DNA of 64,000 nucleotides from contig OZ024745.1 of NCBI GenBank assembly GCA_964016885.1, positions 51,212,001 to 51,276,000 on the forward strand, read 5' to 3'. The translations under genes were made by a program, and so were the position numbers. Of this stretch, positions 30,097 through 30,214 are shown piece after piece (the stretch's first letter is position 1; every line of letters starts with the position of its first letter). The notes below the pieces were generated by a model, which was not told the DNA's origin, ran no database searches, and saw only the letters and a program-made list of their open reading frames with translations. This DNA comes from Eledone cirrhosa. Taxonomy: Eukaryota.

Positions 30097-30214
30097 TTAT
30101 TCTGATGAAATGACAGTAAATAATAACATTGAAATATTGAATGTCTGCATAACTAAAAGTTTGTAGATAGCTGTTTTAGGTTATGTAACTGTTATAGAAA
30201 CACGTGTCAATAAA
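30097..30214 (+). ncRNA. Hammerhead ribozyme of PLE family A, copy 3, with 88-nt branched stem II domain
   Basis: ttatt-CTGATGA-a-atgacagt...actgttat-a-GAAA-CACGT-GTC-aataa; palindromic stem III CACGTG. Confidence 0.8.

Follow-up and report, generated by a model that had tools for sequence, protein, structure and literature searches.

In the window, that is, the whole 64,000-nucleotide stretch of Eledone cirrhosa DNA analysed here, we found a single compound insertion at 20580–30253, made up of a partial tandem and an inverted copy and bounded by (TA)n on both flanks. Its minus strand carries an intact ORF of 772 aa (21803–24121), which encodes a reverse transcriptase with a C-terminal GIY-YIG-type endonuclease, and also a 5′-truncated upstream tandem copy of this ORF (25394–27328). 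The inverted copy (27353–30253, plus strand) is 5′-truncated as well and ends in (TA)n, 45 nt past the predicted cut site of a type I hammerhead motif that occupies 30097–30213 of the plus strand. Identical hammerheads lie on the minus strand in the upstream pseudo-LTR (24329–24445; core start at 24440), where the cut site is 210 nt before the ATG, and in the downstream pseudo-LTR (20738–20854; core start at 20849), at a distance of 3,591 nt. The motif sits in the terminal repeat of a reverse-transcriptase element; the original prediction from this stretch had mentioned the RT as a possible binding partner.

The motifs of the ORF are RWK36, DKT120, YRDD351, CxCx5C630, CxxC728 and CxH756. Together they are diagnostic of the Hydra clade of Penelope-like elements (PMC8557442). 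We observed DKT in place of DKG, a GIY-YIG endonuclease at the C-terminus with the CxCx5C linker, CxxC and CxH that could also be matched by eye to the published alignment, insertion into (TA)n, a pseudo-LTR, and the tandem and inverted arrangement described for this clade. The element departs from the tendencies of the clade in its length (3,591 nt, i.e. 3.6 kb, against units of <3 kb), in its tail (118 nt against the 30–40 bp of Penelope-like elements; PMC8557442) and in the 88-nt spacer of its hammerhead, where a short loop is usual. The cephalopod element Hydra-1_Obim, described in the same source, differs in its protein and has a loop II of 8 nt. A Pfam search of the 772-aa ORF gave no match; its relatives at 30–38% identity include a Hydra vulgaris protein (E = 1e-64). 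At least 110 copies are present in the 3.0-Gb E. cirrhosa genome, and since all 110 scored were at least 99% identical over 374 aa, the family is young. Judged by its diagnostic motifs and (TA)n targets, the host is a young Hydra-clade Penelope-like element. We also considered a non-LTR retrozyme, which consists of short non-coding tandem units, each with a hammerhead (bioRxiv 10.64898/2026.07.22.740005), and rejected it because the unit encodes the 772-aa ORF and so is not a short non-coding repeat.

The 3′ UTR at 29300–29800 (plus strand) and its two minus-strand counterparts contain ∼450 nt of a (TA)/(TATG)-like microsatellite, which is the most divergent part between subfamilies. Through such a 3′ UTR, each insertion spreads a new microsatellite and with it possibly new target sites. 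Other long inverted repeats of 87–97% identity were seen at 51916–52551, 52945–53342 and 49256–50111. Near-identical pseudo-LTR sequence was also observed in sequencing runs X1–X12 under nine organism codes, mostly at low depth among those examined but at very high depth in X9; the sequence may come from related species or from host DNA present in environmental samples, or may reflect transfer. The runs listed included none of RNA, which bears in neither direction on expression.

A sister family was recovered from a relic in the window. A decayed copy at 60870–62860 (minus strand) retains ORF fragments of 36–51% identity together with the 5′ half of a long-stem hammerhead (62814–62857). A pattern derived from this relic, with the 3′ core left free, matched 101 places in the genome and none in the control. 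The 3′ core was intact in 27 of 30 loci, and ORF fragments, mostly 43–64% identical (∼50%) to the window ORF, were found at 16 of the 30. The spacer of the sister is typically 93 nt.

The hammerhead motif

The 5′ strand of stem I, TTATT (30097–30101), pairs with AATAA (30209–30213) and is followed by the catalytic core's first half, CTGATGA (C3–A9; 30102–30108). A spacer of 88 nt (30109–30196) separates it from the second half, GAAA (30197–30200). Stem III is an 8-bp palindrome, ACACGTGT (30200–30207), C17 is at 30208, and the cut is predicted directly 3′ of C30208. Inside the spacer, the 8-bp closing helix of stem II is formed by ATGACAGT (30110–30117) and ACTGTTAT (30188–30195), with pair probabilities of 0.78–1.0 upon folding of the window motif. 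A second GAAA starts at 30131. The AATAAA at 30209–30214, likely a poly(A) signal, does overlap the 3′ strand of stem I as had been proposed; this overlap is confined to the window family and absent from the sister.

All the elements of an enlarged type I hammerhead were thus located, including C3UGANGA9, G12AA14, A15.1–U16.1 and H17, and three stems surround the core, with stem I open and with support from covariation. A descriptor search returned three hammerheads in the window and none in 100 locally shuffled windows. In the genome, the hammerhead pattern with a 70–100-nt spacer gave 2,862 matches against one in the control, and 99 of 100 among the matches listed belonged to the window family. 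In an alignment of 28 rows (composition given below), double changes were found at 2 of 4 stem I pairs and at 4 of 8 pairs of the closing helix, and the stem III pairs were invariant. The sister retains 3–4 stem I pairs, compensatory changes included. The core is identical in young and old subfamilies, an identity partly imposed by the search patterns, and the pseudo-LTR sequence was near-identical across the eight of 24 sequencing runs examined, as contigs only, with T30098C in run X9 weakening the fourth pair of stem I. We concluded that the hammerhead motif and its 88-nt stem II are real, and that its self-cleavage is a prediction.

The positions 10.1 and 11.1 (30109/30196) form an A·A mismatch in the window, a feature that had escaped the original prediction. 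The youngest copies have A·A, the older ones A–U, and the sister is variable here. The G10.1–C11.1 pair of type I hammerheads, a preference and no strict requirement, is absent. U·U at 10.1/11.1 is the usual state of Hydra hammerheads, both in the published table and at the metagenome loci, and is tolerated according to PMC3088659. In other respects, the motif resembles the hammerheads of Hydra elements, which are of type I with a short stem I, one base on each side of stem II and a stem III of the ACAC/GTGT type (PMC8557442). It also shares with the minimal hammerheads of metazoans (Cervera and de la Pena 2014, PMC4209133) the type I form in both pseudo-LTRs, a helix II of 7–8 bp, a short helix I, an extra base after A9 and a palindromic stem III that implies cleavage as a dimer; it differs from them in the lack of the G10.1–C11.1 pair and in a helix II that continues as a 72-nt interrupted extension.

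The claim that standard descriptors would miss this ribozyme was borne out for short-spacer types, such as the core descriptor with 7–17 nt in PMC8557442. It did not extend to Rfam: no hammerhead was matched in the window at E up to 10 or in five long-stem loci, but none of 10 short-stem controls was recognized either, so the blank is not due to the length of stem II.

The window contains further short hammerhead-like cores at 2741, 42516 and 50464 (plus strand) and at 52811 (minus strand). Of these, the one at 2741 resembles a minimal hammerhead: its stem II has 3 bp, and a clear stem I is lacking.

The fold of stem II

The original prediction had drawn stem II as multi-branched, with two sub-hairpins inside the closing helix and with the GAAA at 30131 offering a competing short fold. 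We instead obtained an unbranched, interrupted rod from both folding and alignment (30110–30195). Beyond the closing helix, it comprises helix a (30123–27/30180–84), helix b (30129–36/30172–79), a 2×1 internal loop (30139–30171), in which 30140–30141 lie opposite G30170 beside the U–A pair 30142/30169, and an apical helix (30142–49/30162–69) with a variable tip beyond. Folded alone, the spacer reached −24.1 kcal/mol, where shuffled versions averaged −12.5 (z = −4.4, with 1 of 1000 as good), and the same rod was returned when the active core was forced. The branched fold came to −14.8 kcal/mol, or −17.9 with free inner folding.

Copies recovered through the identity of their ORF proved too similar to one another for covariation to be assessed. 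The alignment used for this purpose combined 12 rows from the family itself, namely the window copy plus 11 chosen among 62 distinct variants, with 16 of the 30 loci of the sister; near-duplicates and indel-bearing copies were left out. From it, RNAalifold returned the closing helix, helix a and the apical helix unprompted. In the core plus rod, 94% of the cells were paired and double changes occurred at 8 of 27 pairs (72 cells), so the compensatory changes asked of the motif at the outset are present. The covariation was 0.316, a value reached by none of 500 shuffles, and slid controls gave 0.02–0.09; the count of doubly changed pairs was equalled by 27 of the 500. Helix a is kept in the sister and changes at two of its five pairs, from U–A to C–G and from A–U to G–C. 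Helix b is specific to the family and lost in the sister, where one apical pair is also C·U or C·C. The tip and helix b vary freely, and the variation of the older subfamilies falls mostly in the loops of the rod. Most of the double changes mark the one split between the two families and represent at most a few independent events.

Standard pairs suffice to draw both sub-hairpins (14 of 14 in the window copy), and 89% of their cells pair across the alignment, but only two of these cells are doubly changed, compared with 72 for the core and rod. Each sub-hairpin has one pair that none of the 16 sister rows can form, and the second sub-hairpin is also broken by G30185A in 22 of 34 aligned older copies and by T30150C in run X9. 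In the full-length motif, their ensemble probability was ≤0.001, with an energy 6–9 kcal/mol worse than that of the rod; the first sub-hairpin was populated only in transcripts that ended before ∼30170, and is favoured in nascent RNA of that length. As regards the competing fold, the GAAA at 30131 is indeed there, but the short fold stayed below a probability of 0.01 at every transcript length tested, lacks a good stem I or III, and loses its first pair in 10 of the 16 sister rows. A branched stem II that switches to the short fold is accordingly very improbable. The best reading of stem II is a hairpin, unbranched but interrupted, that is predicted to have been kept through evolution.

The conserved TAAC near 30186 was considered as a branch point and discarded, as older copies have no AG just after it.

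Insertion ends, the predicted cut and the poly(A) signal

We mapped the ends of insertions relative to the cut site. Among 37 3′ ends mapped at 30 loci that the hammerhead pattern had picked out, 36 were at +44/45 or +163 past the cut, into (TA)n, and the tail between these two fixed ends is 118 nt (20580–20698; 24171–24289). The 40 5′ ends mapped at these loci and at 30 found by the ORF, some of them overlapping, were scattered, and none was at the cut. Since the insertions end +45 or +163 past the cut, the templates span the cut site. Poly(A) is added ∼10–30 nt after the hexamer, which is short of +45, so that we infer the template to be either read-through, uncut RNA or a re-joined circle. 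The Poseidon element PAc of Anolis likewise has two fixed 3′ insertion ends downstream of its hammerhead and templates that cross the cut, and two internal starts of reverse transcription have been shown for it (PMC11167929); it belongs to another clade and its ORF starts in stem II, whereas in our element the ATG comes 210 nt after the cut and stem II lies outside the coding sequence.

In the monomer, the probabilities of stems I and III were ≤0.1, with a predicted stem I occupancy of ∼10%, and closing both stems costs +3.7 kcal/mol. Paired in trans, the stem III palindrome gives 8 bp at −11.7 kcal/mol. Slow cleavage as a dimer has been proposed for the hammerheads of Penelope-like elements (PMC4209133). 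The explanation we consider probable is a hammerhead motif in the pseudo-LTRs of a young Hydra-clade Penelope-like element, with a stem II predicted to be one long unbranched hairpin and with a likely slow cut, in dimeric form, 3′ of C30208. When a tandem insertion is transcribed by read-through, the RNA would contain two such hammerheads at a distance of 3,591 nt; they would pair with each other by means of the stem III palindrome and cut slowly, each rod folding on itself and pointing away from the core. Cuts at both sites would set free an RNA of unit length that lacks the poly(A) signal and may be circularised. Starting 45 or 163 nt past the cut, reverse transcription runs through it, so that the template would be uncut or re-joined at this point. 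The sister has ACA-TT-TGT as its stem III, with no palindrome, and a strict dependence on dimers may therefore not be general.

Efficient cleavage is opposed by the A·A mismatch, which may lower activity, and by the fact that no copy ends at the cut site. It is conceivable that the youngest subfamily has lost cutting and keeps the motif as a structural signal in the pseudo-LTR. The mismatch, the low probabilities of stems I and III in the monomer, insertions that all run through the cut with no 5′ end there, and the Poseidon element, for which cleavage is dispensable in vitro (PMC11167929), are all consistent with such a loss. However, U·U at 10.1/11.1 is usual in Hydra hammerheads, the core is the same in young and old copies (partly fixed by the search patterns), and it is intact in 27 of 30 sister loci. 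We regard the loss of cutting as improbable and retain slow dimer cleavage as the preferred reading.

Next, we compared the position of the poly(A) signal in other elements. Of the distinct Hydra hammerheads from metagenomes, 19 of 44 have an AATAAA or ATTAAA ≤30 nt past the cut, compared with 17 of 261 in the control. Such a signal is also present in 25 of 27 sister loci, in 38 of the 63 long-stem motifs that belong to other families, where the control gave 18 of 378, and in 3 of 15 short motifs. In the sister it is always at offset 9, outside stem I, and in the other long-stem families the offset is 3–19. Hence, the adjacency of poly(A) signal and cut is general across Hydra elements, and the overlap with stem I is particular to the window family. 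A coupling of cleavage with polyadenylation, which had been suggested for this locus, keeps the first of these observations in its favour and loses the second. As the main role of the motif, a switch could be envisaged in which the folding of stem I hides AAUAAA, so that the RNA would serve either as polyadenylated mRNA or, once cut or read through, as template. The discontinuous hammerhead of Clec2 offers a parallel, as it has a large insertion and cuts just upstream of a poly(A) signal, which lowers expression (PMC6765202); it lies in the 3′ UTR of a host mRNA and its insertion is several hundred nt, whereas the insert here is a conserved paired rod in a retroelement. The shifting offsets and the low occupancy of stem I argue against such a switch, the closeness of signal and cut may just reflect that both sit at the 3′ end of the element, and the long stem II is left unexplained. 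As the main role, the switch seems doubtful to us.

Long stems II across the genome and their shared loop

In the published table (PMC8557442, File S2), loop II measures 3–10 nt in all 26 Hydra rows, compared with 72 nt inside the closing helix here. The largest loops of the table, ∼29–35 nt, are in two spike-moss elements (PLE-X1), which are marked there as deviant from the canonical structure; these are endonuclease-less plant elements with loops about half the size of ours, and no shared module is reported in the rows compared. In a metagenome scan that allowed spacers up to ∼130 nt, hammerheads were present at 50 of 80 loci with Hydra-like ORFs and had spacers of 10–25 nt, with one doubtful case of 35. 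The “long helix II” of PMC13725137 is 6–8 bp. The literature we covered, which is partial so that long-stem examples may exist, gave no stem II of 50–100 nt for Penelope-like hammerheads. The association of hammerheads with Penelope-like elements and the canonical hammerheads of Hydra elements are known; the extension of stem II to 50–100 nt appears to be new.

Within the E. cirrhosa genome, the spacers span 12 to 101 nt. Among motifs with this stem III, we counted 102 with spacers of 10–40 nt, 170 matches with 41–69 nt, 89 with 70–100 nt that do not start with A, and 43 with 101–130 nt. Grouping by eye gave about ten families with stems of 47–101 nt (∼47, 60, 61, 77, 80, 84, 86, 90 and 99 nt). 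A Hydra ORF was found upstream on the same strand in four of the families (47 nt, 3 of 10 loci; 80 nt, 2 of 10; 86 nt, 5 of 11; 90 nt, 2 of 7). No upstream Hydra ORF was found for the 60-, 61-, 77-, 84- and 99-nt families; within 1.5–2.5 kb upstream, the counts were 0 of 18 (60 nt), 0 of 11 (61 nt), 0 of 8 (82–90 nt) and 0 of 6 (97–101 nt). An endonuclease tree (140 columns, 42 sequences) joined the window family to its sister at a support of 0.99 and the 80-, 86- and 90-nt families at 0.99, while all the long-stem families came together at 0.71, a support at which a single origin of the long stems is unproven. A covariance model scored the 86- and 90-nt families at 26–48 bits, against ≤25.5 for short hammerheads, and did not recognize those of the 60- and 61-nt families. 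The consensus folds of the old, decayed families are weak.

Several individual loci are worth recording. The 97–101-nt family (L268, L274, L343–L346) has a consensus fold that is truly branched, with two inner hairpins, and no ORF was found nearby. In three single copies (G000:C4:272382128-272382171 on the plus strand, L132 and L144), the stem II extension is partly or wholly deleted, and the first of them retains a canonical 10-bp stem II with a 6-nt loop. L253 and ∼15 similar loci form a GC-rich family with a 76-nt spacer and no stem I, whose status as hammerheads is doubtful. At G000:C20:26368729-26368990, ∼52-nt tandem repeats, each with a short hammerhead-like core, resemble a retrozyme array. 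L115 fell in with the long-stem clade but was dropped as a member, because the endonuclease fragment is located downstream of the 29-nt hammerhead of this locus and probably represents another insertion.

The 2×1 internal loop of the rod recurs in these families. AG opposite G beside a U–A pair was the top-ranked shared 2×1 loop, present in at least 40% of the members in 7 of 11 families. The window subfamily has AA/G at this place, and AG/G is seen in the older copies, the sister and the other families. In six families, the strict form G-AG-U/A-G-C, with its closing G–C pair, was far above shuffles, being carried by 8 of 18, 7 of 11, 7 of 11, 2 of 7, 5 of 12 and 12 of 16 members compared with 0.04–0.26 expected; it was absent from the other 5 of the 11 families. 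As the loop had been spotted by eye before it was tested and the families are partly related, it is a lead and not a proof.

The long stem II could be an inert stalk. The hammerhead would then work as in other Penelope-like elements, and the extension would have grown by small insertions and be paired only to spare the core. This agrees with spacers that run from 12 to 101 nt in one genome, with the free variation of the tip and helix b, with Hydra elements elsewhere that manage on 10–25 nt, and with the consideration that selection against misfolding alone would yield compensatory changes. It is harder to reconcile with the AG/G loop and its U–A pair, shared across 7 of 11 families, with the unpaired region ∼30128–30141, which is similar between families despite the turnover of their closing helices (partly an effect of how the sister was found), and with the deletion forms of the extension, which are single copies only, among the matches listed. 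An inert stalk is a substantial possibility, though one we would not call probable.

Alternatively, the conserved helices and the AG/G loop might serve for docking, the likeliest partner being the protein encoded by the element itself; we view this proposal as possible, on somewhat less than even terms. The Poseidon hammerhead, which cuts only with its protein present, speaks in favour; the protein-binding site of that element, mapped downstream of the ORF start, and the dispensability of cleavage in vitro speak against (PMC11167929). A more elaborate proposal, which we offer only tentatively and think rather unlikely as a whole, is that the Penelope-like elements of one host lineage have made stem II a domain of 50–100 nt, whose AG/G loop would dock the reverse transcriptase–endonuclease 60–150 nt upstream of the first start of reverse transcription and thereby switch the ribozyme on. 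Cutting, polyadenylation and template use would then be one RNA–protein switch.

The role of hammerheads in Penelope-like elements is still an open question (PMC8557442, PMC11167929). If the rod is only an inert stalk, it is a structural curiosity within a known association. Descriptors limited to short spacers can score elements as free of hammerheads; as the core search of PMC8557442 used spacers of 7–17 nt, some families described as “hammerhead-less” or “half-core” merit a second look with long spacers. E. cirrhosa offers, in one genome, a young family whose ORFs are intact and whose copies number in the thousands, together with a natural series of stem II lengths (12–101 nt) and a shared loop. 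Such a series allows a direct test, by simple deletions, of whether the ribozyme is assisted by protein and of whether the RNA is cut or polyadenylated.
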